NCBI GenBank assembly: GCA_946536825.1
Contig: CAMNEX010000001.1
Span: 1 to 62,118, forward strand
DNA from: an uncultured Selenomonadales bacterium
GTDB lineage: Bacteria > Bacillota > Negativicutes > Selenomonadales > Selenomonadaceae
DNA length: 62,118 nt
Reading direction: 5' to 3'
Part shown: positions 8,980 to 62,118 of the stretch, piece by piece
Layout: every line of letters begins with the position of its first letter
Numbering within the stretch: the stretch's first letter is position 1
Notes under the pieces: generated by a model
Databases searched by the model: none
Told to the model about the DNA's origin: nothing
The model's input: the letters and a program-made list of their open reading frames with translations, nothing else
Position numbers and translations under genes: made by a program

Positions 8980-9013
8980 GGGGCGCGAAAAATTTTTTGG
9001 AAGGAGATTTTCA

Positions 9014-46692: not shown

Positions 46693-46693
46693 G

Positions 46694-47638
46694 ATGAGCA
46701 AATACATAACAAAAAGAATTTTAATGTCCGTGCTGACGCTGTTTTTGATAATTTTCGTGCTGTTCGTTTTGATCAGGATTGTGCCCGGCAACCCGTTCCC
46801 CGTCGAACGCATGAGCGCGGAAATGATTTTGCAAAAACGCGCAGAACTCGGACTCGACAAACCGATTTTAATTCAGTTCGTCGATTATATGTCAATGTTG
46901 TTGCAGGGGAGTTTCGGCAACGGGACTTCCCTCTACAACGGCGCACCGATTAAGCCGATAATGATGATCTGCCTTGAAAATTCCTTTAAAATCGGCGTGT
47001 TGTCGATTCTGTTCGGAACGGCGGCGGGGCTTTTCCTCGGCATAATCGCCGCACTTAACCGCGGAAAATTTTTGGACGGCTTGTGCACTGTCGTTTCAAT
47101 TTTGGGCGTTTGCATTCCGTCCTATGTTTTTATGATTTTCCTGCAGTATTTTTTCTCGTACAAAATTTCGTTCTTCCCGTATTTCTTCGACGCGTCAAGA
47201 TTTTTATTCTCCTCGATAATGCCAGCACTGTCGCTTAGTTTGTTCGCGATTGCCACGGTTGCGCGATTTACCCGCAACGAAATGATTGAGGTTATGAACA
47301 GCGATTACGTCAAACTCGCCGAGGCGAAAGGGCTTTACGGCTTTGAACTCATGCGCAAACACGTTCTTAGAAACGCGCTGATTCCCGTCGTGACGGTTAT
47401 CGCGCCGCTTGTCGTGGGTTTATTGACAGGCGCAATGGTCACAGAAAAAATTTACGGCATAAACGGCGTAGGCAAACTCATGGTTGACGCGATTGCCGGC
47501 GAGGGCGTCGATTACAATTATGTTTTGGCGTTGAGCATAGTTTTTTCGGCGTTGTATATCGGGATAATGTTGCTGTTGGATATTCTTTACGGAATAATCG
47601 ACCCGCGCATAAGGTTGACGGCAAAGGAGGCGGCTTGA
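46694..47638 (+). CDS. oppB: Peptide ABC transporter permease
   Basis: Six TM segments. N-terminus MSKYITKRILMSVLTLFLIIFVLFVLIR and an EAA-like loop …DYVKLAEAKGL…. Confidence 0.85.
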   Translation: MSKYITKRILMSVLTLFLIIFVLFVLIRIVPGNPFPVERMSAEMILQKRAELGLDKPILIQFVDYMSMLLQGSFGNGTSLYNGAPIKPIMMICLENSFKIGVLSILFGTAAGLFLGIIAALNRGKFLDGLCTVVSILGVCIPSYVFMIFLQYFFSYKISFFPYFFDASRFLFSSIMPALSLSLFAIATVARFTRNEMIEVMNSDYVKLAEAKGLYGFELMRKHVLRNALIPVVTVIAPLVVGLLTGAMVTEKIYGINGVGKLMVDAIAGEGVDYNYVLALSIVFSALYIGIMLLLDILYGIIDPRIRLTAKEAA

Positions 47639-47641
47639 ATT

Positions 47642-48631
47642 TTGGAAAAAAATTACACGCCCACGGCGGACGACTTTGAATTTATTTCCGACAGAGATTT
47701 GAGCGTCGATTTAAATTTTGCCTCGCAGGGTTATTGGAAAGGCGTTGCTATTCATTTTTTCCGCAGTAAACTTGCTGTGGCGGGCGTGATTATCGTTAGC
47801 TTGATTATTTTGTTCGCGATCCTCGCGCCGATTTTCAGCTCCTACAGCTATCAGGAAATTGTTTCCGTGAACAGCGCGGCGGGCAAGGAAATTGTTGCCA
47901 AAAGTTTGCCGCCGCAATTCGGAGACGGCTCCGCCCAAAATCTTTTCTCCGATAAAACTTTCCTGTTCGGTACCGACGACATGGGGCGCGATCTCTGGAC
48001 AAGAACTTGGCAAGGAGCGCGAGTTTCTTTGATTATCGCGTTCGTCGCGATTCTGATTGATATGATTATCGGCACGAGTTACGGATTGATTTCCGGCTAC
48101 TTCGGCGGGCACGTTGATAATATTCTGCAACGTTTCATTGAAATTGCGGGCAGTATCCCGACGCTGGTTATCATTTCGATTTTGGCAATTTTCATGGAAA
48201 AGGGTATCGGGCTGGTTATCGTGTCGCTACTTTTAACCGAATGGATCGGCATGAGCAAAATTGCGCGGGCGGAGTGCTTAAAGCTAAAGGAGCGCGAATA
48301 CGTCCTTGCCAGTCGGACGCTCGGCGCGGGCAGTTTCCACATCATTTTTAAGCAGATTTTGCCCAACACAATCGGACCGATAATTACTCAAGTCATGTTT
48401 TCGATACCGGTTGCGATTTTCACCGAAGCTTTTTTAAGTTTCGTCGGCGTCGGCATTGTCCTGCCGCAATGTTCGCTCGGCTCGCTGATTGAGGCGGGTT
48501 TCAACAACATAACTGTTTTGCCCTATCAAATTCTGCCGCCAATTTCTGTTCTGGCACTTTTAATGCTCGGATTTAATTTAATCGGCGACGGTTTTCGCGA
48601 GGCTCTCGCACCCAAAATCGAAAACATGTGA
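47642..48631 (+). CDS. oppC: Peptide ABC transporter permease
   Basis: OppC-type N-terminal domain and the loop …EYVLASRTLGAG…. TTG start downstream of AAGGAGG. Confidence 0.85.
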   Translation: MEKNYTPTADDFEFISDRDLSVDLNFASQGYWKGVAIHFFRSKLAVAGVIIVSLIILFAILAPIFSSYSYQEIVSVNSAAGKEIVAKSLPPQFGDGSAQNLFSDKTFLFGTDDMGRDLWTRTWQGARVSLIIAFVAILIDMIIGTSYGLISGYFGGHVDNILQRFIEIAGSIPTLVIISILAIFMEKGIGLVIVSLLLTEWIGMSKIARAECLKLKEREYVLASRTLGAGSFHIIFKQILPNTIGPIITQVMFSIPVAIFTEAFLSFVGVGIVLPQCSLGSLIEAGFNNITVLPYQILPPISVLALLMLGFNLIGDGFREALAPKIENM

Positions 48632-48701: not shown

Positions 48702-48741
48702 TGTTATAATCTTTCAGCTGAAAAAATTTTTTGGCTGAAAG
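48702..48741 (+). promoter_or_regulatory. Extended -10 promoter (TGtTATAAT), immediately followed by a perfect inverted repeat (candidate operator)
   Basis: TG at 48702-48703 and TATAAT at 48705-48710. Inverted repeat CTTTCAGC (48711-48718) / GCTGAAAG (48734-48741) flanks the palindromic core AAAAAATTTTTT. Confidence 0.45.
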
Positions 48742-48764
48742 ATTTTTTTGACGGGAGGATTTTT

Positions 48765-49748
48765 GTGAACAGCTTTGATAAATTTGATGATATAGAACAT
48801 TTGGTTGAAGGGGTTCTCGTCGGGTTGCGGGCGCGAAAGGAAATTGAGCCGCTCCGAAAAAGAATTTCCGAGCTTGAAAAAGCGATAGAGGCTTTCCGAG
48901 AAGAGTGCATTAAACTGCGCGAGGAAAGAGATTTTGAAGCGGATTTGTATAAGGCTCTCAAAAATGATTACGACGAAATTAATCAGCAACTCGACGACGA
49001 ACAAAAAATTTCTTCGGAGCTTAAACGTTCGGTAAAAGCTTTGAGCGAGGAGCGCGACAAGTTGCGCGACGAAAAGGATTTTGAGACAAAGCTTTATAAA
49101 ATTCTCAGAAAAGATTATGACGAAGCCAATCAGCAACTCGACGAAGAGCAAAGAATTTCTTCGGAGCTTAGGCGTTCGGTAAAAACTTTAAGCGGCGAGC
49201 GCGATAATCTGCGCGATGAAAAAATTTCTCTGGAAAAGCAGGTCAAAACTCTGACGAATCGCCTTGACGACGCGAATAAAAAAATTTCCGAATCGGAAGC
49301 GAAACGCCGCGACGCCGAAGGCACCGCAAATTTCTATCGCGACACTTACGGCGAACTCGACGCGGCTTATAAAATTTACTCGACGCTGAACGGCGAGACG
49401 CGCTTTGATTTGGCGGGGATTTTCGGGGCGGGCGATACCGCAAAAGGTTTTTTGAGCGGCGCGGTTCAGGAGTCGCATTTGAATTCTTTCTGGGATTATG
49501 TCAGCCGCCACCCCGACGAAGAAAATTTGCAACGCCTGTTCGATTTTTGCTTTGCGGCGTTAAATCTCGGATTTCGCGAGGCTCCCTACACGCGGCTAAA
49601 CGTCGCCTGCGGAAATGATTTTGATGATGAATTCATGCGGCGCACTTCGCAAAGTCCGCAAATGGGCAACGTCGTCCGCGTCGTGTTTCAAGGCTATCGT
49701 TATTCTTCCGGCAACGTCGTCAAGAAAAGCGTTGTCGAATTGGGTTGA
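48765..49748 (+). CDS. Coiled-coil protein with a GrpE-like C-terminal domain (candidate nucleotide-exchange factor)
   Basis: GTG 48765, 6 nt after GGGAGG. ~190 aa of heptad-rich helix including two 49-aa repeats. C-terminus CGNDFDDEFMRRTSQSPQMGNVVRVVFQGYRYSSGNVVKKSVVEL follows the GrpE beta-domain pattern. Confidence 0.45.
   Translation: MNSFDKFDDIEHLVEGVLVGLRARKEIEPLRKRISELEKAIEAFREECIKLREERDFEADLYKALKNDYDEINQQLDDEQKISSELKRSVKALSEERDKLRDEKDFETKLYKILRKDYDEANQQLDEEQRISSELRRSVKTLSGERDNLRDEKISLEKQVKTLTNRLDDANKKISESEAKRRDAEGTANFYRDTYGELDAAYKIYSTLNGETRFDLAGIFGAGDTAKGFLSGAVQESHLNSFWDYVSRHPDEENLQRLFDFCFAALNLGFREAPYTRLNVACGNDFDDEFMRRTSQSPQMGNVVRVVFQGYRYSSGNVVKKSVVELG
48915..49208 (+). repeat. Two in-frame 147-bp (49-aa) tandem repeats inside the coiled-coil gene
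   Basis: LREERDFEADLYKALKNDYDEINQQLDDEQKISSELKRSVKALSEERDK versus LRDEKDFETKLYKILRKDYDEANQQLDEEQRISSELRRSVKTLSGERDN. A third unit begins but diverges. Confidence 0.8.
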
Positions 49749-49762
49749 GAAAGGAAAATTTT

Positions 49763-52700
49763 ATGGATACAAAAAAAATCGCCGTCTTTCCCGTCGACGA
49801 AAAAACTTTTGCCGATTACAGCGACGCCAAACTCAAGCGCGTTATCAGCTTGGCGAGTGATAATTTCTCGGAAAAATTTTCGGAACTCTGCGCGGAATTC
49901 AAGACGCGCTTTGCCGCCAACGAATGGATTCAAATGGGCAACAAGGACGTTTATTATATCAACGATATTGTCGGGCTCATGCCCAATTTATATAATTTTG
50001 ATTCTGCTGGTCACTCTGAATATTATGGTTACAGTGAATCAACTGACAGATATAAATTCGGGGGATTCCAAGGCGATTTAATGACTGGAAACGAAGCTCG
50101 TAAGTGTTTCAATGACAGAATAAATTATTTCAGAAACAGTAACGGTTATATTGCTCATAAAAATGGAAATTGGTACGAAGGATTAACTTATAAAGATGGT
50201 TCGGAGTATTGGTGGATGTACACTAACAATTCTTATAAATATTCCATTGGTCTCCATAATACCAGAATGAATTACTATCATTACAATGTTTCTATGTTAA
50301 GCGTTCCGATTTATCGCTTTAACGGCAAGGACAGTTCGCCTGCGACAGCACTCGCCGCAATTTTTTATTGGTTTGAATACAACTTAACGCCCAAAACTGT
50401 CAAGTCAGCCAATACAAAAAAACTTTTTAACGAGCTGAAGATTTTCTACGCCACGCAAAAAGAATTCTTGAAAACTCAATGCGAGCAAATTGCCCTTGAC
50501 GAGAAAAAACTTTTCGAGGCAGTCAAGGCGGGCAAAACCTTCGATTTTCTGAAACTCGACTTCCTCAAGGAAAAAACTATCGACGGGCGCGAATACGAAA
50601 CTAATCTGCGCGACGAACTTTTATCCTGCGACAATCGGCGAGTGGCTCTTGACCGCTACGACGAAAAAATTTTGACCGATCCAAATCGCGGACACTGGGA
50701 TTTATGGGACTTGCCCGAAGAAGACGAGCACGGCATTAAACTCAATGAAACGATTTACGCCCGCAACCCCGCCGCCGATGTCAACACCGCCGGTATCGTC
50801 GGAATTGATTTCGGGACAAAATCAACCGTCGTAGTCTATGAAAACGAACGCGGCGAAATTATTCCGTTGCAGGTCGGCAAGGGCGATTACTCAAAAGGCA
50901 TCAAGGCTGAAAATTACGAGAACCCGACAATTATTGAATTCCGCCACATTGAAAATTTCCTTGAGGCATATTCCGCCCGCGCAGGTCGTCCAAAAACTTC
51001 GTGGAACGACGTAACTGTTTCGCACACCGCCCGAACAAATTTGCAGAACACCAACGACAGCAGTTTGTTCGCGTCCTTCTTCGAGAATATCAAGCAGTGG
51101 TGCGGCAATATCCAATACACGACAAAAATCCGCGACCACGACGGCACGGAAAAAGATTTGCCGCCCTTCCTCGACATTTCCAAGGACGAATTCAATCCCC
51201 TGGAATATTACGCCTATTATCTCGGCTCCTATATCAATCACATGCTCCGCCCCAATCATATTTTCATGAAATACATTTTGAGTTTCCCCGTCATGTACGA
51301 ACGCAATATCCGCGAGCGCATGTTGAAGGCTTTCCGCGCAGGCATTTTAAAATCTCTGCCGACCGCGCTTTTGGACAACGAAGACGCAATGAAAGATTTC
51401 CAAGTCGTCGAGGGCACGAGCGAGCCCGCCGCTTATGCTGTCACTGCGCTTGACGGTTACGGCTTTTTGAATGGCGAGGAAAATGACGGCGTTTATTATT
51501 CGGTCTTCGACTTCGGCGGCGGCACGACAGATTTTGATTTCGGCGTCTTGAAACTCGCTGAAGATGACGACGCAGATTTTTATGATTATGTCCTGACGCA
51601 TTTTGGGGCACACGGCGACAGGACGCTGGGCGGCGAAAATCTTTTGCGGCTTATGGCGTTTGAAATTTTCAAGGCGAACAGCGACAAACTTTTGAAGCCG
51701 CGAGAAAATTCCAAAGTGAAAATCCCGTTCACATGGGCGGCAGAAAAAACCGAGTTCGCCGGCTCTGAAGGCTTAATTCGTTCGTCGCAGGAAGCCAACC
51801 TCAATATGCATAATCTTATGGAGGCGTTGCGCCCAATTTGGGAGGCTCCAAACTCCGACGACGCTAAAAAAATTCTGGAATCGGGCACCGTAACTTTAAC
51901 GGTCTTCGACGACGCCGGAAAAGAACTCACCGGCTTTACTCTGTCAATCGGCTCGCAAAAAACCCCCGACGAAGTTAATCCCCTGCCGACAGTGCGGGCT
52001 AAGCCGACAACAACCGCCTTTGAAGTTCCTGCAACAGAATTCAACAAAATTTATAGTCAAGCGTGGGAAGAAGGGGATTTCAATGCAATAAAACAATTAG
52101 GCGAATGGGCAATCCGCGGACACAATGAATCGCTTGTAAATCTTGAAAAGCTTAGCACTGCCGATTATGTTAACGCAACTGAAATTTTATGGAAGCTTAA
52201 AGCAGATAAAAAAATTCCCGACGCGGAGCCGGAAGTCAAAGTTGAGCCGAAGAAAATTGCGCCGCTCGTCGACCTGAACAAAATTTTGCGCGAGAGAATT
52301 TGCCGCGGCATTGACAACTTTTTTATTTCCCTGCGTGACGCCTTCGACAAGATCAGCGGCGGCGAAGATAACGGCGTTGCGGCATTGAGCGACGTGACGG
52401 AGATTGGGATTTTCCTTGCGGGCAATTCGACGAAATCCGCGCTCGTCAAGAAACTTTTCGAGGAATACATTGACACGGAAAAGGGCAAGGCACGCAAGCT
52501 TTTGGGTTTCGGCAATCCGCAGAAAATGCCGCGTTTTGTTTTGTATTCGCCGCTGGGCACCGACGAGGCATATAAAATTCAGGAGTCAAAAGACTTGCCT
52601 GTCGACAAAAATAATTTCGCCGCTCCGACGGGCAAAACAGGCGTGGCGTTCGGGCTGTTGCGTTGCAGAGACGGCTCGGCAATTCGCGTCGTCGACATCA

Positions 52701-53044
52701 GCCCCGAAGGCAAGGACAAAAAGCAAGTTCCTTTCCAATTTTACGTCGGGCGGGCTCGCATGGGAAAATTTAAAATTGTGCTTGATAAGTCGACAAAGCT
52801 CGGCAAATGGTGTAAATTCATAGGCTCGAAGCTCGGAGTTTTCGACCTGCTTTACACCGACCAAAGCATTGCGGCGACGAATAACGCGCCCGCGTCTATT
52901 GCAAAGCGTTTGACAATTCACGTTGACGCCGACGCCGAAGCGAACGTTTACATAAAGGCGGTTGAATCGAACAAAATTTGTTATGCCGTTTCAAAGGGCG
53001 AGCCGACTGTTGAAATTGAAGGAAAGCTGATAACGTTGGATTAA
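49763..53044 (+). CDS. Giant (1093 aa) Hsp70/actin-fold ATPase-like protein
   Basis: GIDFGTKSTVVVYE (phosphate 1), VFDFGGGTTDFDFGVL (phosphate 2), HGDRTLGGENLL (compare DnaK GDTHLGGEDFD), IFLAGNSTKSALV (adenosine). ~330-aa N-terminal and ~250-aa C-terminal extensions. ATG 49763 after AAAGGA. Confidence 0.65.
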   Translation: MDTKKIAVFPVDEKTFADYSDAKLKRVISLASDNFSEKFSELCAEFKTRFAANEWIQMGNKDVYYINDIVGLMPNLYNFDSAGHSEYYGYSESTDRYKFGGFQGDLMTGNEARKCFNDRINYFRNSNGYIAHKNGNWYEGLTYKDGSEYWWMYTNNSYKYSIGLHNTRMNYYHYNVSMLSVPIYRFNGKDSSPATALAAIFYWFEYNLTPKTVKSANTKKLFNELKIFYATQKEFLKTQCEQIALDEKKLFEAVKAGKTFDFLKLDFLKEKTIDGREYETNLRDELLSCDNRRVALDRYDEKILTDPNRGHWDLWDLPEEDEHGIKLNETIYARNPAADVNTAGIVGIDFGTKSTVVVYENERGEIIPLQVGKGDYSKGIKAENYENPTIIEFRHIENFLEAYSARAGRPKTSWNDVTVSHTARTNLQNTNDSSLFASFFENIKQWCGNIQYTTKIRDHDGTEKDLPPFLDISKDEFNPLEYYAYYLGSYINHMLRPNHIFMKYILSFPVMYERNIRERMLKAFRAGILKSLPTALLDNEDAMKDFQVVEGTSEPAAYAVTALDGYGFLNGEENDGVYYSVFDFGGGTTDFDFGVLKLAEDDDADFYDYVLTHFGAHGDRTLGGENLLRLMAFEIFKANSDKLLKPRENSKVKIPFTWAAEKTEFAGSEGLIRSSQEANLNMHNLMEALRPIWEAPNSDDAKKILESGTVTLTVFDDAGKELTGFTLSIGSQKTPDEVNPLPTVRAKPTTTAFEVPATEFNKIYSQAWEEGDFNAIKQLGEWAIRGHNESLVNLEKLSTADYVNATEILWKLKADKKIPDAEPEVKVEPKKIAPLVDLNKILRERICRGIDNFFISLRDAFDKISGGEDNGVAALSDVTEIGIFLAGNSTKSALVKKLFEEYIDTEKGKARKLLGFGNPQKMPRFVLYSPLGTDEAYKIQESKDLPVDKNNFAAPTGKTGVAFGLLRCRDGSAIRVVDISPEGKDKKQVPFQFYVGRARMGKFKIVLDKSTKLGKWCKFIGSKLGVFDLLYTDQSIAATNNAPASIAKRLTIHVDADAEANVYIKAVESNKICYAVSKGEPTVEIEGKLITLD

Positions 53045-53117
53045 AAAATATTTTCTGCGCGGCTTTTCATGTTGACGGCGGCGCAATAAATTGATAATTT
53101 TTATGGAGGAAAATTGA

Positions 53118-53465
53118 ATGGCAGATTTTTTGACGGAGCGAACGAAATTTTACTGCGTGGCGGCTCCGGCGGTGAATTTCTCAATTTCAATGTCGGGTAA
53201 AGTCACGCACCGAGGCGCAAAAGTTTTGACGACGGCGGCGAAGTTGTCAGGCAAAGGACTTTGTCCGAAATTAACGGCGTTTATGCAATCTCCGCAACAG
53301 TGCCAATTCAAACAAACGCCGTGGCTGAATTTCGATTTAAAATGCAAAGCCGAATCAAAAAATTTGTTGATGGCGGATTCCTTTTGTAGCTGTCCTGTAC
53401 CTATATGCGCCGGCACGGTCGTGAAAGTCCGCTTGGCAAGGGCGCAAGGATTTAAACAAGCATAA
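53118..53465 (+). CDS. PAAR-like (DUF4280-like) small Cys-patterned protein
   Basis: 115 aa. FYCVAAP…GKGLCPKL…CQFKQTPW…SFCSCPVPICAGTVVKV resembles the DUF4280 Cys/Trp spacing. ATGGAGG RBS. Confidence 0.45.
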   Translation: MADFLTERTKFYCVAAPAVNFSISMSGKVTHRGAKVLTTAAKLSGKGLCPKLTAFMQSPQQCQFKQTPWLNFDLKCKAESKNLLMADSFCSCPVPICAGTVVKVRLARAQGFKQA

Positions 53466-53477
53466 GGAGGAAAATTT

Positions 53478-55730
53478 ATGGCGAACACATGGGATAAAAT
53501 TCCGCAAACACATCGGGCGATTTTGTTCGAGGAGTTCACTCACCCCGCTGACACTTCGGCGAAAAATTTATACAGTATTTTAGACCTATACGACGACTTC
53601 GATCCAGGCAATAATGAACTGCACAAAGACATTGAGAAAAAGCTTGAGGTTCGGAGTTTCAACGAATTTTTGGAAAAGTTTCAGCCGAAAGTTTTTGAGT
53701 GCGTCACGGGCACGGAAAACGACGTTCCGTTTTTTCAGTACACCGACGACCCAATGGAGGCAAAGAAAAATAACGGGCGCGAAATAAAAATAACCTGTCA
53801 CGCCTATTACGAAATGCTCGTGAACATGTACACCCAAAAAGGCGACAGCGGCATTGCAAACATTGAATTCGATGATGAAAAAATTCGCGAGATACTCACG
53901 CCCAAGCGCGAGATTGAAGCCCTTTACGATACGCGCCAAAAAATTCCCCTGCTCATGGAAAAATATGATGAACGACTTGCCAAAAATGAAAATGCCGCGC
54001 CCATTGCCAAACGTCTGAAGGCAATTCGCAGAAACGCCCTTGACCAGCTGAAAAATCCCAGGACGTTAATGGCAATCAGCCTTGACGATACCGAGAGGAA
54101 AATTAAGGCGGCAGATGAAAAACTTCTGCAGTTGAAGGCGGCAGAATCAAATAGCGACGACAAGCCAAAAAAATTACTCAGCGGACGCGGCGGTTTCGAT
54201 CAAGACGGACATTGGATTTTAATTCCCGCCAAGGCAAGTACGCCCGACTCCGACGAAAGTAGCGACGCAAAAAGCGACCCCGACGGCGACAACGCAAACA
54301 AATTTGCCAAAATAATTCAAGGCGATTTAAATAAACACGCGGCGGACGAAAGTAATTTCACGAAAGCTTTGGTTGTCTCGGCTTACACCGGCAGAGAACT
54401 TACCAATCCGTTTGAGAATAAGGACAGCACCGCGCTCGCCGTATATCGCGCCGAACTCGTCGAGAATAAAAAAATTATTCAAAACAGTTTCAAGCAGGCG
54501 CAGGAAGCTTTTATAAAAGTTCTGTCCGACAGCGTCCGGAAAATGTTGTGCGTGAAAATTTTCTTCGATCATGCCACGGTTGGCAAGGGCGGCGATGACG
54601 CAAAACTCCCGAAGGTCGGCTTAATCGTCGCGAATTGCAAGGCGGATAAACTCATTGACAATAAAATCAAAGGCAAATTTGAAGCTACAATGCAACATTT
54701 GGGCTTGGGCGTCAGCGACAAAAATAAACTCTGGTTCGCGATTTTGCCGCATGTCTTTCACGAAGATTTTTCGGACGGCGGCGGCGCAAGTCAAAATGCC
54801 GATCTTGATGACGATTTATATGACGACGACGACAATCAAGATATAACTTCTGCGAACGGCACGGATTTTTCTGCGGCGAAGTCGATTTTAAGAATCATGG
54901 AAGATTGCAAGATTATGACGGTTTTTAACTTCGCGTCCACCAGTCCTTCAATGACTTTTTCGGGCATTAACTCGGAAGTCATAAAAAAGCTTGAGGACGA
55001 ACTTGAGCCGCTCAATTACGAACACGCGGTTTACGCCCTGCCGAATTTTACGATTATGAAAGAAGGGACCGTTTCTCTCGGCAAAAAAAATGAAACCGAC
55101 GCGCCGAAAATTTCCGTCCCCGCAATGTACATTGACGCGGCGTATGTGGCGGCGGGTTTGCTTATCGCCGCTCAGCAACCGGAATTTTGGATAAACAACG
55201 GCTTTAAGGACGCCTTCATAAAAGAAAATTCCTGCGTTCGCATTGACCTTGAGGAAGACAAAATTACCGCCAAATTGCTGACGAAATTTAATCGCGAACG
55301 CTCAATCGCCTGGAGCGCGGACGTTATCAATGCTTTCACGGCGAATCGTTTCGGCTTTGCCTTCGACGGCGATCAAAGATACGACGAACGAGCGGACAGA
55401 TTTATTAACCGCACTTACATTCTTAACGCCAGAACGCTCAAGCGCAAGGACGGCGAATATCAAGCGATTTTCCGCACGCTCATGAAAGATTTTATCAAAG
55501 CTTATTTGAAAACTTACGGCTCAAAACTCAAAGCTCCGCAACGCGACGATTTCCTTAACAAAGTCGTTGCCGAGTGGAAGCAGCAATCCAAAAAATATAA
55601 ATCTAAGGGCGATATAATCAATCTCATGCTCCGAGACGGCGAAGATATTTCCAAGGAAGAAAATACCAGCAATTTGAAAGTTGAACTTTCGGGCGGCGAG
55701 GAAATGCTTGACGTTGAAATTGTCGATTAA
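53478..55730 (+). CDS. Candidate fused TssB/TssC-like contractile sheath protein
   Basis: N-terminus has a TssB-like segment KKLEVRSFNEFLEKFQPKVFECV. The C-terminal ~330 aa follow the TssC-like order of hydrophobic blocks (…ILRIMEDCKIMTVFNFAS…, …AVYALPNFTIM…, …MYIDAAYVAAGLLIA…, …TYILNART…). Two acidic low-complexity linkers lie between. AAGGAGG RBS. Confidence 0.4.
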   Translation: MANTWDKIPQTHRAILFEEFTHPADTSAKNLYSILDLYDDFDPGNNELHKDIEKKLEVRSFNEFLEKFQPKVFECVTGTENDVPFFQYTDDPMEAKKNNGREIKITCHAYYEMLVNMYTQKGDSGIANIEFDDEKIREILTPKREIEALYDTRQKIPLLMEKYDERLAKNENAAPIAKRLKAIRRNALDQLKNPRTLMAISLDDTERKIKAADEKLLQLKAAESNSDDKPKKLLSGRGGFDQDGHWILIPAKASTPDSDESSDAKSDPDGDNANKFAKIIQGDLNKHAADESNFTKALVVSAYTGRELTNPFENKDSTALAVYRAELVENKKIIQNSFKQAQEAFIKVLSDSVRKMLCVKIFFDHATVGKGGDDAKLPKVGLIVANCKADKLIDNKIKGKFEATMQHLGLGVSDKNKLWFAILPHVFHEDFSDGGGASQNADLDDDLYDDDDNQDITSANGTDFSAAKSILRIMEDCKIMTVFNFASTSPSMTFSGINSEVIKKLEDELEPLNYEHAVYALPNFTIMKEGTVSLGKKNETDAPKISVPAMYIDAAYVAAGLLIAAQQPEFWINNGFKDAFIKENSCVRIDLEEDKITAKLLTKFNRERSIAWSADVINAFTANRFGFAFDGDQRYDERADRFINRTYILNARTLKRKDGEYQAIFRTLMKDFIKAYLKTYGSKLKAPQRDDFLNKVVAEWKQQSKKYKSKGDIINLMLRDGEDISKEENTSNLKVELSGGEEMLDVEIVD

Positions 55731-55745
55731 GGAAGGGGTTTCCAA

Positions 55746-56174
55746 ATGATTTATTACGAATTGAAAATTGAGTCCTCAAGCGAGACTATCGAGATTAACG
55801 AAGACAACGCGATTGATTATGCAGATGTTGTGCTTGACACGCTCGACAACAGCACGCAGAAAAAATCCAGTTCACTTTTGGCGCGAATGACCATTCAAGG
55901 CAACATAACTTCTTCGATTAATGACAGCCTGATTAAAATTTCGGAATGGGCTCGCGACCTCAAAAAAGAGACGACTTATCGCAAGGTAACTTTGGTGATA
56001 AAGGAGGACAAAGCGGGCGTTATCCTGCGGACGTATGAAATTCCCGATATGTTTGTCTGCGACTACAGCGAAATTTACCATACGCCCAAAGAAGGCACCG
56101 ATCCGGAGCCGTTTCAATTCGTGCTCTCTCTCAATCAAAGAGAAAATAAGCTTGAAGAATTCAACACGTATTGA
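55746..56174 (+). CDS. Hcp/TssD-like tube protein
   Basis: 142 aa. The pattern …ARMTIQGNITSS…LIKISEWA…YRKVTLVIKEDKAGVILRTYEIPDMFVCDYSEIYH…PFQFVLSLNQ… mirrors Bacteroidetes-type TssD proteins. Sits between the sheath-like and VgrG-like genes. Confidence 0.5.
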   Translation: MIYYELKIESSSETIEINEDNAIDYADVVLDTLDNSTQKKSSSLLARMTIQGNITSSINDSLIKISEWARDLKKETTYRKVTLVIKEDKAGVILRTYEIPDMFVCDYSEIYHTPKEGTDPEPFQFVLSLNQRENKLEEFNTY

Positions 56175-56189
56175 TAGGGAGAAATTTTA

Positions 56190-57593
56190 ATGAAAGTTCG
56201 TGGCTTGGGCGAGGAAAATTATTTTGAAAAAATTTTGGTCGGCAAGGCGGCTAATCGGCACAGCTTTTGCGAATTCAGACAGCGCACGCCCGAAGAAAAT
56301 TTTTCTGTTTATCAAAATGCAGTAGGTAAAGAAATAGGCGTCGAAACGGACAGCGGACGCCCAATTTTTTTTGGCGAAGTGACGGAAGTTTTAATCGAGC
56401 AAACCTACCACGGCAATTACGTCGAAATTCGCGCCGAATCAACTTCGCTGAAAACCGACGAGGAGCCGCAGACGCGCATTTTCCAAAATCCCGAAAAAAA
56501 ATTCGGCGAAGTTTTGAACTCTGAACGCTTGAAACTCAAAAACTGCGCGGTTGCGCTTGACGATAAGTTGAAGTCGCAACCTTGCAAAGAAATTATTCTG
56601 CAGGACGCCGAAACAAATTTTGAGTTCGTGAAAAGATTGGCGGCGTGGCAGGGGCGGCGCGTTTGGGTAAAGGACACGTGGCAAGGGAAATGCGAATTAA
56701 AAGTTGCGGCTTGCTCCGACGAATCGGCGAATAAAATTTCTCAAGACGAAATCATCAGCTTGAAAGTCGGTCGGCGCGGGAAAATTCGCACAGCCAAACT
56801 TGTCGCGCAGAAATATTTTGAGCTCGGTCGCATTTTGAGTTTGGGCGATAATCCCTGCAAATATTTGATCGTTGGGCTTGAAATTTATCAGGAACGCGGC
56901 GTCGACAGAATGTGCTACGCTTTGGAGGAATTTAAAAATCTTGAGCCGGCAAAACTTTGCTCCGCGACGCCGATTAAGCTTAAGGCGACAGTCAAAGACA
57001 TAACCGACAAAGAAAATTTCGGACGGCTTCAAGTGCAATTCGAGATTGAGGACAAGGACGAAAAAAAATCGTGGTTGCCTTATCGGACGCCTTACAGCGG
57101 AATAATTTTTTTGCCGGAAATCGGCGAGACTGTCGAAATTTTTTACACGCAGGGCGAATGCTACATTGCCTCGACTTTGCGGACGAAAACTCTTGACGAC
57201 GAATTTAAAAACGTCAAGGATAAATTTATCGGCAATAATCGCAAGCAAAGAATTTTTTTCCGCGAGAAATCGCTTGAGATTAAGTCGCTTGAAACTTCGA
57301 TTTTCATGGACGAAAAAAAAATTGTCCTGAGCGTCGGCACAAATAAAATCGTTATGGACGAGCAGGGAATATCGATAAAAACGGGCGGCAAGCTCAATGC
57401 GGAAATCGCCAAGGAAGTTTTGCTGAAGGCGGGCGAATCCTTAACCGAGCAAATCGGCAAAGATATTTCGTCGAAGGCGGGCGGAAAAATTTCTGTCGAT
57501 AGCGGCGGCAATACTTCGTTCAAAGTCGGCGGGAAATTCGAGGCGGAAGCGAGTTCTGCAAAAATTAAAGGTAGCAGTGTCGAGTTGGGATAG
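56190..57593 (+). CDS. VgrG-like spike protein (gpD/gp27-like plus gp5 OB-fold plus short beta-helix), no effector extension
   Basis: OB-fold hallmark …ATVKDITDKENFGRLQVQFEIEDKDEKKSWLPYRTPYSGIIFLPEIGETVEIFYTQGE…IAS. C-terminal repeats of the K-x-GGK type. Confidence 0.7.
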   Translation: MKVRGLGEENYFEKILVGKAANRHSFCEFRQRTPEENFSVYQNAVGKEIGVETDSGRPIFFGEVTEVLIEQTYHGNYVEIRAESTSLKTDEEPQTRIFQNPEKKFGEVLNSERLKLKNCAVALDDKLKSQPCKEIILQDAETNFEFVKRLAAWQGRRVWVKDTWQGKCELKVAACSDESANKISQDEIISLKVGRRGKIRTAKLVAQKYFELGRILSLGDNPCKYLIVGLEIYQERGVDRMCYALEEFKNLEPAKLCSATPIKLKATVKDITDKENFGRLQVQFEIEDKDEKKSWLPYRTPYSGIIFLPEIGETVEIFYTQGECYIASTLRTKTLDDEFKNVKDKFIGNNRKQRIFFREKSLEIKSLETSIFMDEKKIVLSVGTNKIVMDEQGISIKTGGKLNAEIAKEVLLKAGESLTEQIGKDISSKAGGKISVDSGGNTSFKVGGKFEAEASSAKIKGSSVELG

Positions 57594-57604
57594 GAGGAAA
57601 TTTA

Positions 57605-58696
57605 ATGGAAATGACGCGGCAGGAGGCGGAAAAATTTTTAAAGCGAGTCGAAAAGGAATTAAACGCCGAGCAAAAGGAAACTTTAAAAAAATTGAAGAGC
57701 CGCGTAGAAGAAGAATTGCGCGGCGCGGAAAAATTTATCGAGGTTGTGACGGACGTGGAGGAGACAGAAAATCTTTTGCCGCTTGAAGTCGGCGACGGAA
57801 TTTTTTTCGCTAATCAGCCGCCGCTTGAAACAGGCGAGCCGAAAACGCTTCCTTACGAGCCGTTTTTTTTATGCGTACCTTACGAAGAATTTTTTTCCTT
57901 ACTGAATAAAGATTTTCGCGGCGCGGGCTTTACCTATCAGCTCAAGCCGGATTATCGTTTTGTCGAGGTGGAGGAAAAAATTTATCGGGCGGCGAGCCTT
58001 TACAATGTGCCGTTGCAAATTTATTCGCCGTATGCAAGGCGGGCGGTCGACATTTGCATTTTCGGCGAAACTACCGAGCTTAATTTCAAGCTGTCGGAAA
58101 ATAATTTGGCGGGCAAATTGCTTACGGATAAAAAATTTTATTGGAATGTCGAAATAGATTCTGTGTCGTGGGATTCAATGCAGACGGTCGGGAAGCTTTA
58201 TGAATATCGCTGTTCGGCGGAGGATTTAAGTTTTGTCCTGCCCTGCCGCGATTCTTCGCTTGACGCCGATATAGAAGTTAGGCGAGCCGACGGGCAAATT
58301 ATTTTTCGGACGCCGCGAGAATTCCCGACGGAAAAGGGCGAGCGCATAAAAATTTTGCCGATAAAAAATAAAATTGCGTCGAGAATTTTGAGCAAAAAAA
58401 GACTTCGGACGCAAGGCGATATTGAGTTTGTCTTGAGCGGACTTTCTCGCGACGGCTATTCCTGTCACTTCGGGCAATTCGGCGACGCGGCGGAAAATAT
58501 CACGCCATACACGGCGGAGCATAAATATTTTTCTTCGGCGGACGAAAATTTGTTGCGGGCTAAAAAATATCTGCCGCAATGCACGGTTAAATTTGTCGGC
58601 GCGGAATTTTTCCTGGCGGATTATGCGAACTTTGTCCTGAAATTTTTGGAGGAAAATTATCCTGAATTTAATTGGGCGGGTGAGCGCGATGGATAA
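57605..58696 (+). CDS. Hypothetical protein (363 aa), operon member
   Basis: TAGGAGG RBS, 11 nt after the VgrG-like stop. Helical N-terminus (EKFLKRVEKELNAEQKETLKKLK), then a mixed domain. No motif recognised. Confidence 0.6.
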   Translation: MEMTRQEAEKFLKRVEKELNAEQKETLKKLKSRVEEELRGAEKFIEVVTDVEETENLLPLEVGDGIFFANQPPLETGEPKTLPYEPFFLCVPYEEFFSLLNKDFRGAGFTYQLKPDYRFVEVEEKIYRAASLYNVPLQIYSPYARRAVDICIFGETTELNFKLSENNLAGKLLTDKKFYWNVEIDSVSWDSMQTVGKLYEYRCSAEDLSFVLPCRDSSLDADIEVRRADGQIIFRTPREFPTEKGERIKILPIKNKIASRILSKKRLRTQGDIEFVLSGLSRDGYSCHFGQFGDAAENITPYTAEHKYFSSADENLLRAKKYLPQCTVKFVGAEFFLADYANFVLKFLEENYPEFNWAGERDG

Positions 58697-59153
58697 GGAA
58701 GAATTATTCGTCACGGCGGAGGAAGTCGCAAGAGATTTTCGCGGCGGCTTAAAAAATCTGCGCGGGAATTTTATCGAAGAACTTTTACGCGAGGAATTGA
58801 ATCAAGGTTATTACGGCGCGGAGGCTAAAAAAATTTTCGGCGCATTGACGCAAGCCGAGCAAGATTTAATTTTGCGGGCACTGAAACTCCAAGAGCAATG
58901 CGAAGGTCGGCAATTAAAATTCATGTTGGCGTTGAAAAGTCTTTTCCCGCACAGCGAAATTTATTTTCACACCGGAAAATTTTTGTTGTGTTTGCCCGAA
59001 GAAAAATCAGCGGCGGCGTTGGAGAAAATCGAACTGATAAAAATTTTGTTTATGGCGGCGGGCAATTCGGAGCTTGAAATTTATTTCGGGGAACATTTCG
59101 GGGTATTCGGCACGCCGCGGACAATGCGCCTCGACGAAATGATTTTGTATTGA
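58689..59153 (+). CDS. Hypothetical protein (~154 aa), translationally coupled
   Basis: Overlaps the upstream stop by 8 nt (or by 17 nt if GTG 58680 is used). Mostly helical. No motif recognised. Confidence 0.55.
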   Translation: MDKEELFVTAEEVARDFRGGLKNLRGNFIEELLREELNQGYYGAEAKKIFGALTQAEQDLILRALKLQEQCEGRQLKFMLALKSLFPHSEIYFHTGKFLLCLPEEKSAAALEKIELIKILFMAAGNSELEIYFGEHFGVFGTPRTMRLDEMILY

Positions 59154-59167
59154 ACGGAGGTTTTTTT

Positions 59168-60742
59168 ATGGGAGTGGCAATCGGTTTGGACTTCGGCACG
59201 ACAAATTCCGTTGTGACTTACGAAGATAAGGACGGGAAATTGAAAAGCTTTAAAGTAAACGGCTCGCCGCTTATCCCCAGCGTGATTTTTTTCAAGACGC
59301 GGGAAGATTATCTTATCGGGCAAAAGGCGTTGAACAGGAGCGGGCAAAATCCCGCGGGCGCAATTTCCGGCTTCAAAACCAAACTCAACGAAGACAATAT
59401 GCCCTATGAAGTGATTTTATCAGACGGCTCAAAGTTTAAAATTCTGCCGAAGGTCGCCGTAAAATATTTTTTGAACAAATTGATGAGCGAAGTCCAAGAA
59501 TATTTGCTGAAGAAAAGAATTGCCGACGCGGCGATTGACCGCGCAGTCATAACCGTGCCGACAAAATTTAACGACAAGGCAAATCAAGCAATAAAATCGG
59601 CGGCGGCGCAGGCAATGAATTTGAGTTTCAAACAAATAAAACTCGTCTACGAGCCGACAGCGGCGGCAGTTGCGGCGCATAGTGACGACGAACCCGACGC
59701 AAAAAATTTATTGATTTACGACTTCGGCGGCGGGACTTTCGACGTTTCCTTGATTCAAAAGGACGGCAAAGTTTTCAAGCAGATAAAAACCGACGGCGAC
59801 CCGAAATGCGGCGGCGATTTACTCACCGGCATATTGGCGAAAAATTTGTTGGAAGGCGCGAACGACGAATACGGAACGGATTTTCCGTGGGATTTTGAAG
59901 ACCTCGACGAAGACAGCCTCAGCGAACTTAAATATAAAGAAAATATTGCGGCGATTGTCAAAGAGGCGAACACGGCGAAAATTTATCTCAGCGAAAATAC
60001 CGATACGGACGTTACGTTTCCGTTTTGGATATCGGAATCGAGGAGCGAAAATTACAATGTCAACGTGAGCCGCAAAGATTTTGAAAGAATGATTCGCAAG
60101 GAAATAAATCACACGGCGGAAATAACGCGGCGCGTTGTCGACAGCGACGAGGCAAAAGCGGCGGGCGGCATTGACAAAATTATAATTGCGGGCGGGTCGG
60201 GGCAAATTCCCATGATTCGCGATGTCTTAAGGGATAAACTCGGAAATTTCTCAATCAATCGCTCGGAAGAAATTTCGACGCTGATAAGTCGCGGCGCGGC
60301 GATTCTGGCAAAAAATATTGAGTCGCTGGAAAATGTGACTGCGCAAAAAACTACGGTGCAGTTGGGAATTTCTTCGACACAAGGCATGGGCTACGGAATT
60401 TTTCAAACGATTATCGAGGCGGAGCGCGATCTTCCCTGCGAAAATTCTTGCGATTTCCGATTAATGGAAGATAATCAGCGGCTGTTGAAAATTTCTTACT
60501 ACGAGCGCGACATTAAAAATTATCCCCGCGCCGAACGCATTGACGACGCGGGAATTACGCAAGTTGACGAACTCGAAGTGGAATTGCCGCCGGGGCTGAA
60601 AAAATCTGACACCGTGATTAAAATTACTTTCGCCGTGCAAAAGGATTCAAGTCTTGAACTTTCCGCCGAGGTTTTGAGGAACGACGGAAGCAAAATCAGC
60701 GAGGAGAAACTTAAAGTCAACAAAGTTTCCGATTTGTTCTAA
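59168..60742 (+). CDS. Hsp70-family protein (NBD plus beta substrate-binding domain, no helical lid or EEVD)
   Basis: GLDFGTTNSVV, IYDFGGGTFDVSLI, DGDPKCGGDLL, IIIAGGSGQIPMIRD. SBD-beta-like end …TVIKITFAVQKDSSLELSAEV…. ATG 59168 after GGAGG. Confidence 0.8.
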   Translation: MGVAIGLDFGTTNSVVTYEDKDGKLKSFKVNGSPLIPSVIFFKTREDYLIGQKALNRSGQNPAGAISGFKTKLNEDNMPYEVILSDGSKFKILPKVAVKYFLNKLMSEVQEYLLKKRIADAAIDRAVITVPTKFNDKANQAIKSAAAQAMNLSFKQIKLVYEPTAAAVAAHSDDEPDAKNLLIYDFGGGTFDVSLIQKDGKVFKQIKTDGDPKCGGDLLTGILAKNLLEGANDEYGTDFPWDFEDLDEDSLSELKYKENIAAIVKEANTAKIYLSENTDTDVTFPFWISESRSENYNVNVSRKDFERMIRKEINHTAEITRRVVDSDEAKAAGGIDKIIIAGGSGQIPMIRDVLRDKLGNFSINRSEEISTLISRGAAILAKNIESLENVTAQKTTVQLGISSTQGMGYGIFQTIIEAERDLPCENSCDFRLMEDNQRLLKISYYERDIKNYPRAERIDDAGITQVDELEVELPPGLKKSDTVIKITFAVQKDSSLELSAEVLRNDGSKISEEKLKVNKVSDLF

Positions 60743-60755
60743 GGAGGTATTTATT

Positions 60756-61499
60756 TTGTCGTTATGGGAATGGATTAAAAATTTACTTTATCGCCTGCGC
60801 GGCGGCAAGCCGAAACGTTCGCCAAAAAAAATTATTCAAAGTCACAGACCGCAAATTAAATCGGAACCGCCGCCGTGGAAGTCCGTTTATTCGTCGCCAA
60901 TCTCTGAACCGCGGCGGGAAGAAATTTCCGAGCCAAAGAAAGAATTCGTCTTGGACATAAGAAACGAAGCCGACATGGAAAATTATTTGGGCAAGTTGAG
61001 AAATCGCGGTGCCTTTGAAAGTTTTCGGCGCGATTTTCCATTGCCGTGGCTGAATACACATTTATCCAGAGCGGACGACGTTTTGTCGAAAATCGCTTTG
61101 CTTAAAGATTTTGATGAGGAGGAATTTAATTCAAAATTGGCGAGCAAGGTTTGCAATTTGTCAAAACACATGCTCGCCATTTACAGAGACGCGGAAAATT
61201 CTCCTCAGCTCAACGAAAACTCGCGGCAACTGCTAAGAAGTCTTGTCGAAAATTATCTTTCGGAAATTGGCTTGACGAAAAAAATTTTTAAAGTCGGCGA
61301 CGCTTACAACGATTGGGCAGATTTGAATCTGGATACTTCTTCTGCCGAATTTATCGCTACCGATAATCGGACTTTGGGCTCGACCCTTGCCGCAATAAAA
61401 ATTCAACCGCATGTAATTTCTTATCGGAACGAGTTCGGCGAAATTAAACAGCTTATTTTCGGCGGCTTGTGCAGAGCTTACAAATTTAAGGAGGTTTGA
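60756..61499 (+). CDS. Hypothetical protein with a basic/Pro-rich N-terminus and a possible GrpE-like C-terminal end
   Basis: TTG 60756, 8 nt after AAGGAGG. C-terminus VGDAYNDWADLN…LAAIKIQPHVISYRNEFGEIKQLIFGGLCRAYKF loosely follows the GrpE beta-domain pattern. Confidence 0.35.
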   Translation: MSLWEWIKNLLYRLRGGKPKRSPKKIIQSHRPQIKSEPPPWKSVYSSPISEPRREEISEPKKEFVLDIRNEADMENYLGKLRNRGAFESFRRDFPLPWLNTHLSRADDVLSKIALLKDFDEEEFNSKLASKVCNLSKHMLAIYRDAENSPQLNENSRQLLRSLVENYLSEIGLTKKIFKVGDAYNDWADLNLDTSSAEFIATDNRTLGSTLAAIKIQPHVISYRNEFGEIKQLIFGGLCRAYKFKEV

Positions 61500-61502
61500 G
61501 AG

Positions 61503-62118
61503 ATGGCTCTTTTCGGATACGAATTATATACCAACGATGACCGGCGCGAAATTAAAAGTTGGATTAAAAGCAGCGATGACAAATTGCGTGGGGACATGAA
61601 AAATCTGGACGCTTTCGTAAACCAACAACTTAGTCAGTATGACGCGGAGTTTAAATCTCAACTGAATATTTTTCAATCTGAACTGAACAACGAAATTTCT
61701 TCTTTAAAACGAGATATTACTTCGCTCAGAATTTCTTTTGCGTCGGCAGTGGAAGTCGATGCGCTCAAAAAAGAGGTCGGCACTTTGAAATATGAAATTG
61801 ATTCTTTGAAACCGTCAATCGAAACCGACGTTCTCAAAAAAGATATGGTCGCGCTCAAGGCTGAACTTGCCGTTTTGAAAAATATTCCAAAATCTTCGAC
61901 AAGCTCCGACGCGCTTAAACAAGAACTCGTCGCACTTAAAGGCGAACTCGCCGCGTTAAAACAATCTCCCGCGCAGTCCGCCGAAATTGCCGCGATTAAA
62001 TCCGAACTCGCCGCGCTTAAACAATCTCCCGCGCAGTCCGCTGAAATTGCCGCGATTAAATCCGAACTCGCCGCGTTAAAACAATCTCCCGCGCAGTCCG
62101 CTGAAATTGCCGCGATTA
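61503..62118 (+). CDS. Coiled-coil protein with 20-aa tandem repeats (3' end outside the window)
   Basis: ATG 61503, 3 nt after the previous stop and behind AAGGAGG. Not in the ORF track because no stop is reached. Sequence is heptad-like …LKRDITSLR…LKKEVGTLKYEIDSLK…, then (ELAALKQSPAQSAEIAAIKS)n. Confidence 0.7.
   Translation, partial: MALFGYELYTNDDRREIKSWIKSSDDKLRGDMKNLDAFVNQQLSQYDAEFKSQLNIFQSELNNEISSLKRDITSLRISFASAVEVDALKKEVGTLKYEIDSLKPSIETDVLKKDMVALKAELAVLKNIPKSSTSSDALKQELVALKGELAALKQSPAQSAEIAAIKSELAALKQSPAQSAEIAAIKSELAALKQSPAQSAEIAAI
61944..62118 (+). repeat. Near-perfect 60-bp in-frame tandem repeat, at least 2.9 copies, cut by the window edge
   Basis: Units start at 61944, 62004 and 62064. 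Only 2-3 synonymous differences between copies. Confidence 0.9.

Follow-up and report, generated by a model that had tools for sequence, protein, structure and literature searches.

A Selenomonadaceae operon that joins predicted contractile-injection core genes to Hsp70-family ATPase genes, and its relatives in Firmicutes

The stretch of DNA analyzed here (the window) is one entire contig of 62,118 bp (CAMNEX010000001.1) from an uncultured Selenomonadales bacterium of the Selenomonadaceae, with an even G+C content along its whole length. It carries an operon on the + strand, from 48765 to the contig end, in which genes for a predicted contractile injection apparatus (sheath, inner tube, spike and spike tip) stand together with genes for Hsp70-family ATPases. 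Ten complete open reading frames (ORFs) and one cut ORF were found in this part of the window:

ORF1, 48765-49748, + strand, 327 aa: coiled-coil protein
ORF2, 49763-53044, + strand, 1093 aa: large Hsp70-family ATPase (alternative TTG start at 49745)
ORF3, 53118-53465, + strand, 115 aa: DUF4280 (PAAR-like) spike-tip protein, bare, without a toxin extension
ORF4, 53478-55730, + strand, 750 aa: divergent contractile-sheath protein (fold-level call)
ORF5, 55746-56174, + strand, 142 aa: predicted inner-tube protein of the Hcp/Afp1/Pvc1 fold
ORF6, 56190-57593, + strand, 467 aa: VgrG-like spike
ORF7, 57605-58696, + strand, 363 aa: conserved core protein, candidate baseplate component
ORF8, 58689-59153, + strand, 154 aa: conserved core protein, candidate baseplate component
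ORF9, 59168-60742, + strand, 524 aa: Hsp70
ORF10, 60756-61499, + strand, 247 aa: conserved protein
ORF11, 61503-62118, + strand, truncated where the contig ends, with 205 aa visible against 435-508 aa in relatives: coiled-coil protein

The intergenic gaps from ORF1 to ORF11, computed with starts that have a ribosome-binding site, were +14, 73, +12, +15, +15, +11, -8, +14, +13 and +3 nt, and a GGAGG/AGGA-type ribosome-binding site was located in front of most ORF starts. The ATG start of ORF8 at 58689 was taken from the gene call on a twin scaffold, L084; the ORF listing has a GTG start at 58680. L084 is a second assembly of the same sequence and breaks within the same ORF11 repeat as the window, and this repeat probably broke both assemblies. 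The continuation of the operon past the contig end was deduced from the relatives L002 and L087, in which ORF11 is followed by a second Hsp70, a pair of small coiled-coil proteins and a fusion of Hsp70 with VWA; beyond these, the genes change strand. The operon has about 15 genes in all, including four for Hsp70-family ATPases, and its first 11 genes lie in the window.

ORF6 matched Pfam Phage_base_V over its gathering score (E 8.8e-8) and NCBIfam VgrG_rel (E 7e-9), with weak matches to DUF2345 and Phage_GPD. Its matches among the PDB sequences were the VgrG 6u9e, the spike of the Streptomyces contractile injection system (CIS; 9gtr_q) and the VgrG of a type VI secretion system (T6SS; 9jg8), and it combines a gp27-like N-terminus with an OB fold of the gp5 type and a beta-helix at the C-terminus. 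ORF3, which contains seven Cys residues, matched Pfam DUF4280 under the gathering score (E 8.7e-4), and its orthologues reached 1e-7.

Neither ORF5 nor ORF4 had a match in Pfam, NCBIfam, PHROGs, PADLOC or PDB sequences, and both were assigned from AlphaFold2 predictions. The ORF5 model was built from an alignment of homologues with a predicted local distance difference test (pLDDT) score of 89. Its top 45 Foldseek matches in the PDB were all CIS tube, Hcp or phage tail-tube chains, including Afp1, Pvc1, Hcp1, the monocin tube and T4 gp19; the best was 6rao_F (E 1.4e-5), at a template modeling (TM) score of about 0.5-0.6. These matches identify ORF5 as an inner tube protein of the Hcp/Afp1/Pvc1 type.

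The ORF4 model was predicted from 45 homologues (pLDDT 84, predicted TM score 0.84). Foldseek ranked the PVC sheath 6j0c_A first in the PDB (E 8e-3) and the T6SS sheath 9n4v_A second (E 1.5e-2), both with a probability of 0.99. Against the viral library BFVD, named tail sheath proteins, from myophages, accounted for four of the six best matches, ranks 1 and 2 being unnamed; E-values began at 8e-4 and probabilities were 0.93-1.0. The model also contains a helical insertion of ~250 residues, roughly at 110-370. The Foldseek results identify ORF4 as a divergent contractile-sheath protein, a fold-level call with partial coverage. In this family the sheath is one chain of 720-760 aa, without a T6SS_VipA or VipB profile match. 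When single tail proteins of phage P2 were compared by hhalign, sheath with gpFI (E 0.022) and VgrG with gpD (E 0.0028) were each the best pair, both weak.

ORF9 matched Pfam HSP70 at E 2.2e-52 over profile positions 1-486 of 599; the match takes in the nucleotide-binding domain and, of the substrate-binding domain, the beta part, and stops before the helical lid. NCBIfam DnaK was also matched (E 2.4e-54, far below the equivalog cut-off), and so were MreB-type profiles. The library matches of ORF2 as a single sequence were faint. Its family alignment matched that of the operon Hsp70 family with an hhalign probability of 99.8% (E 1.6e-27), and the family profile matched the DnaK nucleotide-binding domain in the PDB at 8e-9. 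An Hsp70-type nucleotide-binding domain with large insertions extends over ~340-1050 of ORF2, and is preceded by an N-terminal region of ~340 aa without assignment. By our reading of the family alignment, the invariant residues D349, K444, E554, D583 and GGGT585-588 are the counterparts of the catalytic set of Hsp70. Judged by these similarities, ORF2 is a large Hsp70-family ATPase.

A sequence-only reading made earlier of the same DNA had described a tightly spaced set of same-strand ORFs, which the coordinates and gaps confirmed. It had called ORF3 PAAR-like (DUF4280-like), ORF5 Hcp/TssD-like, ORF6 VgrG-like, ORF9 an Hsp70 and ORF2 an ATPase of the Hsp70/actin fold, and all of these assignments were upheld by the matches above, that of ORF3 being subthreshold in the window copy and clear in the orthologues. 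For ORF4 it had proposed a TssB-like N-terminus and a TssC-like C-terminus; the sheath fold was recovered by Foldseek over ~300-330 residues, and the division into TssB-like and TssC-like ends was not established. ORF4, ORF5 and ORF6 all matched sheath, tube or spike folds, the point on which the earlier reading had staked itself.

A total of 83 homologues of ORF4, with a lowest identity of 23%, were identified in a collection of 5.8 billion proteins. In a profile search of 1.84 billion representatives the sheath family comprised 463 clusters and stood apart from ordinary sheath families at the HMMER level. A scan of one genome per species located sheath relatives in at least 176 species-representative genomes. 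The hosts included diderm Negativicutes (Selenomonadaceae, Quinella and Anaerovibrio) as well as Sporomusa, Pelosinus, Ruminococcus, Lachnospiraceae, many species of Clostridium, and Paenibacillus, Aneurinibacillus and Halanaerobacter. Single metagenome-assembled genomes (MAGs) labelled Fusobacterium and Desulfovibrionaceae also carried the family. The sheath family is mostly found in Firmicutes, monoderm lineages included.

Scans of 50,697 phage genomes and 72,556 plasmids gave no match to the sheath gene, and of 2.9 million viral contigs only three matched, each time at a contig end. No capsid, terminase, lysis, fibre or tape-measure genes were detected near the loci. A prophage, tailocin or plasmid origin was rejected on these negative results and on the chromosomal housekeeping flanks, an Opp transporter in the window and ftsZ in L002, and a prophage remnant or tailocin is unlikely.

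Co-conservation was analyzed in the 62 species-representative loci whose sequence extends for 9.5 kb or more beyond the sheath gene on its downstream side. The tube gene was present in 62 of the 62 loci and an Hsp70-like gene in 60, so that the linkage of Hsp70 genes with the injection core, which had been named beforehand as a check, was found at the level of species. ORF7 was detected in 58 of these loci and ORF8 in 55.

ORFs were called and clustered in 83 loci, and two architectures were recognized. The window type (~25 loci) contains ORF1, ORF2, DUF4280, sheath, tube, VgrG, ORF7, ORF8, Hsp70, ORF10 and ORF11, with the ORF9 Hsp70 holding the same position across the loci. The clostridial type (~46 loci) starts with a VWA membrane protein, followed by the sheath, two tube genes, a J-domain protein, a pair of FHA proteins and a pair of PP2C-like membrane proteins. 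Next come ORF7 and ORF8, and then a relative of ORF2 of 770-960 aa, here called HspB, which forms one family with ORF2. Some of the clostridial-type loci also encode a Ser/Thr kinase, and a hydropathy scan found a transmembrane segment in all of their FHA, PP2C and VWA proteins. Both types share the sheath and tube genes, those of ORF7 and ORF8, and one for a large Hsp70-like ATPase. In Lachnospiraceae the operon is extended by several VgrG-like genes, a pentapeptide protein, Imm11-like and DUF4280 genes and an evolved VgrG of ~1650 aa.

Some variation was observed at the front of the operon. In a Selenomonadales MAG (L013, ~3481-9881) the block ORF1-ORF2-DUF4280-toxin-Imm11 sits immediately in front of the sheath gene in inverted orientation, encoded by the other strand; because of this inverted block, the operon front can be a separate transcription unit. 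In a subset of the window-type loci (L001, L020-L022 and L025-L027) two extra genes, for an unassigned protein of ~370 aa and a DUF6734 protein of ~280 aa, precede ORF1, and the window is without them. The chromosomal insertion sites of the operon differ among Selenomonadaceae. In L002/L003, a relative of 67% identity, an IS605 OrfB/TnpB-like gene (1871-3118) separates cell-division genes (ftsQ-like, DUF881, DUF1290) from ftsZ, a short way upstream of the injection operon.

Candidate co-chaperones were found in both architectures. The J-domain protein of the clostridial type matched DnaJ at E 1e-25 and displayed the HPD motif in 46 of 46 loci. ORF1, encoded directly upstream of ORF2, has a coiled-coil N-terminal half and a conserved C-terminal domain of ~140 aa, and gave coiled-coil matches only in Pfam and NCBIfam. 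A coiled-coil repeat of 147 nt (49 aa) is present at 48956-49222 in 1.8 copies of 84% identity; among the ORF1 relatives the coiled coil is ~90-190 residues long, and the spacer length seems free to vary. The ORF1 family was found in 16 window-type loci and the ORF10 family in 21 loci.

The GrpE-like ends proposed earlier for ORF1 and ORF10 were not established. A Pfam GrpE match was obtained for 5 of 15 C-terminal domains of the ORF1 family (best E 0.0046) and not for the window copy. In hhalign the ORF1 family and E. coli GrpE aligned at their terminal beta-strands with an E-value of 0.4, which is not significant. The ORF10 family displayed no similarity to E. coli GrpE detectable by hhalign, and ORF10 had no match in Pfam, NCBIfam, PHROGs, PADLOC or PDB sequences; a PDB profile search for GrpE gave no match. 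The C-terminal domains of the two families are marginally related (hhalign E 0.0025, probability 12%). The combination of a coiled coil with a C-terminal domain is one that fits a GrpE-like exchange factor or an adaptor, and ORF1 is regarded as a candidate for such a role. ORF11 falls in one BLAST family with ORF10 and is a coiled-coil protein with 20-aa tandem repeats; the 60-nt repeat, in 3 copies at 61936-62118, continues off the contig end, in agreement with its first description as a repeat-bearing coiled-coil protein.

ORF8 is always encoded directly 3' of ORF7, and is ~230 aa long in most relatives versus 154 aa in the window. The two families (67 members, ~40 of them ORF7) had no match in Pfam, NCBIfam, PHROGs or PDB sequences, nor did the window copies in PADLOC. 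The sequence-only reading had left both proteins without a name. Their database homologues are all unnamed, and those of ORF7 carry no Pfam domain. When the family alignments were compared by hhalign with gpW, gpJ and gpI of phage P2 no match was found, in a test of low power in which the tube missed gpFII too. ORF7 and ORF8 are candidate baseplate proteins and could represent a divergent form.

Other expected components were searched for. No AAA+ or Clp-family ATPase, ClpV and Afp15 types included, was found in the operon or among the conserved neighbours of the 83 related loci, in a search that covered these loci and not the rest of the genomes. TssE/F/G/K, gp25/gp6/gp7 and TssJ/L/M had no family match in Pfam, NCBIfam, PHROGs or PADLOC and were not seen among the conserved neighbours, and no TssA was detectable in the operon. 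No tape measure, cap or tail terminator, or tail fibre was recognizable in the operon or its relatives; divergent versions may be present among the unassigned proteins. The scans of the operon agree with the earlier statement that it holds no recognizable ClpV or membrane-complex genes. The companion statement on the baseplate stands as far as family matches go, and does not extend to a true absence, since ORF7 and ORF8 could be a divergent baseplate. Membership of a defence system was rejected, as PADLOC gave coiled-coil noise only.

Cargo genes were identified in the relatives. The DUF4280 gene is extended to 430-630 aa in 14-15 window-type loci; nine of the extended proteins match the AHH (HNH/EndoVII) nuclease toxin domain, and in 11 cases the next gene encodes Imm11. 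This arrangement follows polymorphic-toxin logic, with the cargo carried on the spike tip. Tae4 is a T6SS amidase effector that acts on the cell wall, and in distant loci a tae4 gene, with a small neighbouring gene, adjoins the sheath gene (two cases). Several clostridial-type loci encode, beside VgrG/DUF4280, a pentapeptide-repeat protein (190-380 aa) and, next after it, an Imm11-like protein (L092/L093, 16729-17700; also L038, L043, L052 and L077). This pentapeptide-repeat protein may be an effector or adaptor family specific to the system.

Housekeeping genes, among them those of an Opp-type peptide transporter, lie upstream of the operon in the window. The interval from the end of the Opp permease gene (48631) to the start of ORF1 (48765) contains a perfect hairpin (48708-48744) with a 17-bp stem (AATCTTTCAGCTGAAAA/TTTTGGCTGAAAGATT), followed by a T-run; this hairpin serves either to terminate the upstream operon or as an operator of the injection operon. 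An ORF of 204 aa at 44439-45053 resembles, by reading of its sequence, a D-Ala-D-Ala peptidase of the M15 type, and is followed by Opp-like substrate-binding and permease genes (44620-48631). The long TTG-started ORF at 44620-46692 overlaps the peptidase-like ORF, and its true start is probably further downstream. Far from the operon, an ORF of 636 aa at 4390-6300 has the look of a FlgE-type flagellar hook protein at its ends, with a long insert rich in Thr, Asp and Gly; it has no relation to the injection operon.

Taken together, these results make it quite probable that the operon encodes a real CIS-type apparatus with dedicated Hsp70s. As a whole, we favor the reading that the locus represents an unannotated CIS lineage, probably T6SS-like, with Hsp70 machinery in place of ClpV/Afp15. 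It is also fairly likely that the apparatus delivers antibacterial toxins. We propose only tentatively, by analogy, that the Hsp70s replace an AAA+ ATPase of recycling or assembly. The full scheme is somewhat more doubtful again, namely a separate T6SS-type lineage of Firmicutes in which a cycle of Hsp70, J protein and exchange factor replaces the AAA+ unfoldase and ORF7/ORF8 form a baseplate unrelated in sequence to gp25/gp6/gp7.

According to this scheme, a VgrG trimer capped by DUF4280 would nucleate a tube of ORF5 hexamers within a sheath of ORF4, on a platform probably formed by ORF7/ORF8. Contraction of the sheath would expel the spike together with its cargo, which in the relatives would be a DUF4280-AHH nuclease (neutralized by Imm11), a Tae4 amidase or evolved VgrGs. 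The Hsp70s would carry out the ATP-dependent work of the ClpV/Afp15 type, most likely the disassembly of the contracted sheath for reuse and/or a chaperone function in assembly or cargo loading. We infer this servicing because the Hsp70 genes are strictly linked to the core, their catalytic residues are invariant, HPD J-domain or GrpE-like/coiled-coil partners are encoded beside them and no AAA+ gene was found. In the clostridial version the HPD J-domain protein would target Hsp70, and the FHA, PP2C, kinase and VWA proteins at the membrane would act as a gate on firing. Such a gate has a precedent in T6SSs, where Fha, PppA and PpkA control firing. The window version would have GrpE-like coiled-coil proteins and extra Hsp70 paralogues instead of the J, FHA, PP2C and VWA parts.

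Several observations weigh against this reading. The E-values of the ORF4 sheath fold are modest (8e-4 to 1.5e-2), with TM scores of 0.2-0.4 and ~300-330 of 750 residues covered. No baseplate, cap, tape measure or membrane anchor was recognized in the operon. The hydropathy scan detected no transmembrane segment in any of the 11 window proteins, a difficulty for an apparatus that would have to reach or cross the envelope, above all in thick-walled monoderms. ORF3 of the window is a bare DUF4280 protein, and no effector or immunity gene was recognizable in the window. GrpE similarity is weak, and no J domain was found in the window-type operon at E <= 1 with a hidden Markov model built from the clostridial-type J proteins. 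The role of the Hsp70s, finally, is drawn from gene linkage and analogy.

The best-placed alternative, which we consider unlikely, accepts the contractile machine as real and regards the Hsp70s not as its recycling motor but as a scaffold or anchor, similar to PilM, FtsA or MreB, or as a chaperone of cargo or assembly. On that account, the sheath would be used once or turned over by housekeeping proteases or ClpB. The large extra N- and C-terminal regions and insertions of ORF2/HspB, which are unlike a plain chaperone, are consistent with it, as are the matches of ORF9 to MreB-type profiles, the fusion of one Hsp70 paralogue to VWA, a protein-binding domain, and the lack of a J protein in the window-type operon. 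Moreover, T6SS subtype iv and extracellular contractile injection systems (eCIS) work without ClpV-type recycling. However, the Hsp70 catalytic residues are invariant throughout ORF2/HspB and a dedicated J-domain protein with HPD is encoded in all 46 clostridial-type loci. The weak GrpE-like signals also point to a true Hsp70 cycle with remodelling of a client.

It is rather improbable that the operon encodes a cytoplasmic CIS that acts on its producer, in cell death, stress or development as the Streptomyces CIS does, with the Hsp70s and the kinase, phosphatase and FHA proteins as stress sensors. No transmembrane or signal-like region is present in the window proteins, neither a membrane complex nor tail fibres were recognized, many hosts are thick-walled monoderms and the signalling modules resemble those of regulated conflict systems (Kaur et al., 2020; PMC7159879), all of which would suit a self-directed function. 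The cargo of the relatives speaks for an outward direction: the DUF4280-AHH nucleases have an adjoining Imm11, evolved VgrGs occur, the cell-wall amidase Tae4 must reach the wall of a target, and immunity genes are typical of interbacterial weapons with kin protection.

Least of all, and very improbably, the locus might be the decayed tail module of a prophage or tailocin, or a vgrG island that assists a canonical T6SS or eCIS elsewhere, with the Hsp70 genes as mere neighbours: sheath, tube and spike folds are also those of phage tails, but the locus encodes its own sheath and tube, its gene order with the Hsp70 genes recurs over families and classes of Firmicutes, the phage, plasmid and viral scans and the search for phage genes nearby gave the negative results described above, and the flanks are housekeeping genes. 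The auxiliary island, which the sequence-only reading had itself raised as its routine alternative, is unlikely because of this sheath and tube and because the mostly Firmicutes hosts belong to lineages not known to have a T6SS; the search for canonical T6SS, eCIS or AAA+ partners covered the loci and not whole genomes.

Contractile weapons of the T6SS type are regarded as a Gram-negative feature, and the system described here is common in Firmicutes of the rumen and gut, where it may shape competition. Current T6SS and eCIS detectors would miss it, because the sheath, tube, ORF7 and ORF8 families are absent from Pfam, NCBIfam and PHROGs. If the Hsp70s do service the sheath, it would be the first contractile machine to run on an Hsp70 cycle and not on an AAA+ ring, and a bacterial counterpart of clathrin uncoating. 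Cultured hosts are available, including Anaerovibrio lipolyticus An883, Ruminococcus flavefaciens MA2007, Clostridium beijerinckii HUN142, C. neonatale, Sporomusa rhizae DSM 16652 and strains of Paenibacillus and Aneurinibacillus. Full-text searches of the literature, with subscription-only papers outside their scope, returned no description of a system of sheath and tube with Hsp70, and a prior description is possible; within the literature searched, the earlier statement that no described system has this composition holds.

The operon shares several features with the T6SS. The sheath is encoded by the cell, together with an Hcp-like tube, a VgrG spike and a PAAR-like DUF4280 tip; effector/immunity pairs and Tae4 are located nearby in the relatives, with effectors fused to the tip or to VgrG, and the clostridial version has a control module of FHA, PP2C and kinase. 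Unlike the T6SS, the sheath is one piece of 720-760 aa that no T6SS or phage sheath profile matches, TssE/F/G/K, TssA and TssJ/L/M were not detectable, and in place of an AAA+ ATPase, of which none was found, the loci encode between one and four ATPases of the Hsp70 family, together with J-domain or GrpE-like partners. The hosts differ as well, being Firmicutes and many of them monoderm. Of the two-part sheath, the ClpV and the membrane complex that define a canonical T6SS-i, none was detected at the locus. Departures from the canonical form are seen among T6SSs themselves, since in Francisella (T6SS-ii) the DUF4280 protein IglG serves as the tip and ClpB takes the place of ClpV, and in Amoebophilus (T6SS-iv) ClpV is missing.

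With respect to eCIS (Afp, PVC, AlgoCIS) and to cytoplasmic or thylakoid CIS (CIS-Sc of Streptomyces, tCIS of Anabaena), the best matches of the tube (Afp1, Pvc1), sheath (Pvc2) and spike were to these systems, and the Streptomyces CIS likewise encodes no obvious membrane complex in its operon. The operon differs from eCIS in lacking a recognizable gp25/gp6/gp7-like baseplate, tape measure, cap, tail fibre and Afp15-type AAA+ ATPase, in its unique Hsp70 set, and in the fusion of toxin to tip, which is T6SS-like and not eCIS-like. The Afp15 AAA+ ATPase, tape measure, terminator or cap and fibres by which an Afp/PVC-type eCIS is recognized were not found.

Hsc70 and the J protein auxilin strip clathrin coats. 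Both this pair and the disassembly of fibrils by Hsp70, DNAJB1 and Hsp110 resemble the operon, as a functional analogy only, in that genes for Hsp70, for candidate exchange factors and, in the clostridial type, for a dedicated J protein are found beside those of a large helical polymer that would need disassembly after use. The clients are not homologous, the window type has no J protein, and those machines have no counterpart of ORF2/HspB. Kaur et al. (2020; PMC7159879) described conflict systems centred on GTPases and tubulin homologues, in which Hsp70 paralogues are found with GrpE, DnaJ, VWA, kinase and phosphatase proteins. Non-housekeeping Hsp70 paralogues with such partners, in Firmicutes and Actinobacteria, are a shared feature; identity with those systems was rejected, as they include no sheath, tube or spike and no GTPase is encoded here.

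Lays et al. (2016; PMC5349215) and Zhang et al. (2021; PMC8651086) noted pairs of DUF4280 and Phage_GPD genes (PAAR_H2 type) in Firmicutes that are Gram-positive. The surroundings of the pairs yielded neither eCIS nor T6SS genes in those two studies, and a Gram-positive system was only speculated upon. The same side-by-side arrangement of VgrG-like and DUF4280 genes was observed here in Lachnospiraceae, Clostridium, Ruminococcus and Selenomonadaceae, and the orphan pairs are very likely the same loci as the injection operon. In contrast to those reports, the sheath, the tube, two core proteins and the Hsp70s are found here in the same operon or within ~5-15 kb. The missing sheath and tube are now supplied and a conserved gene set is defined, making the Gram-positive question directly testable.

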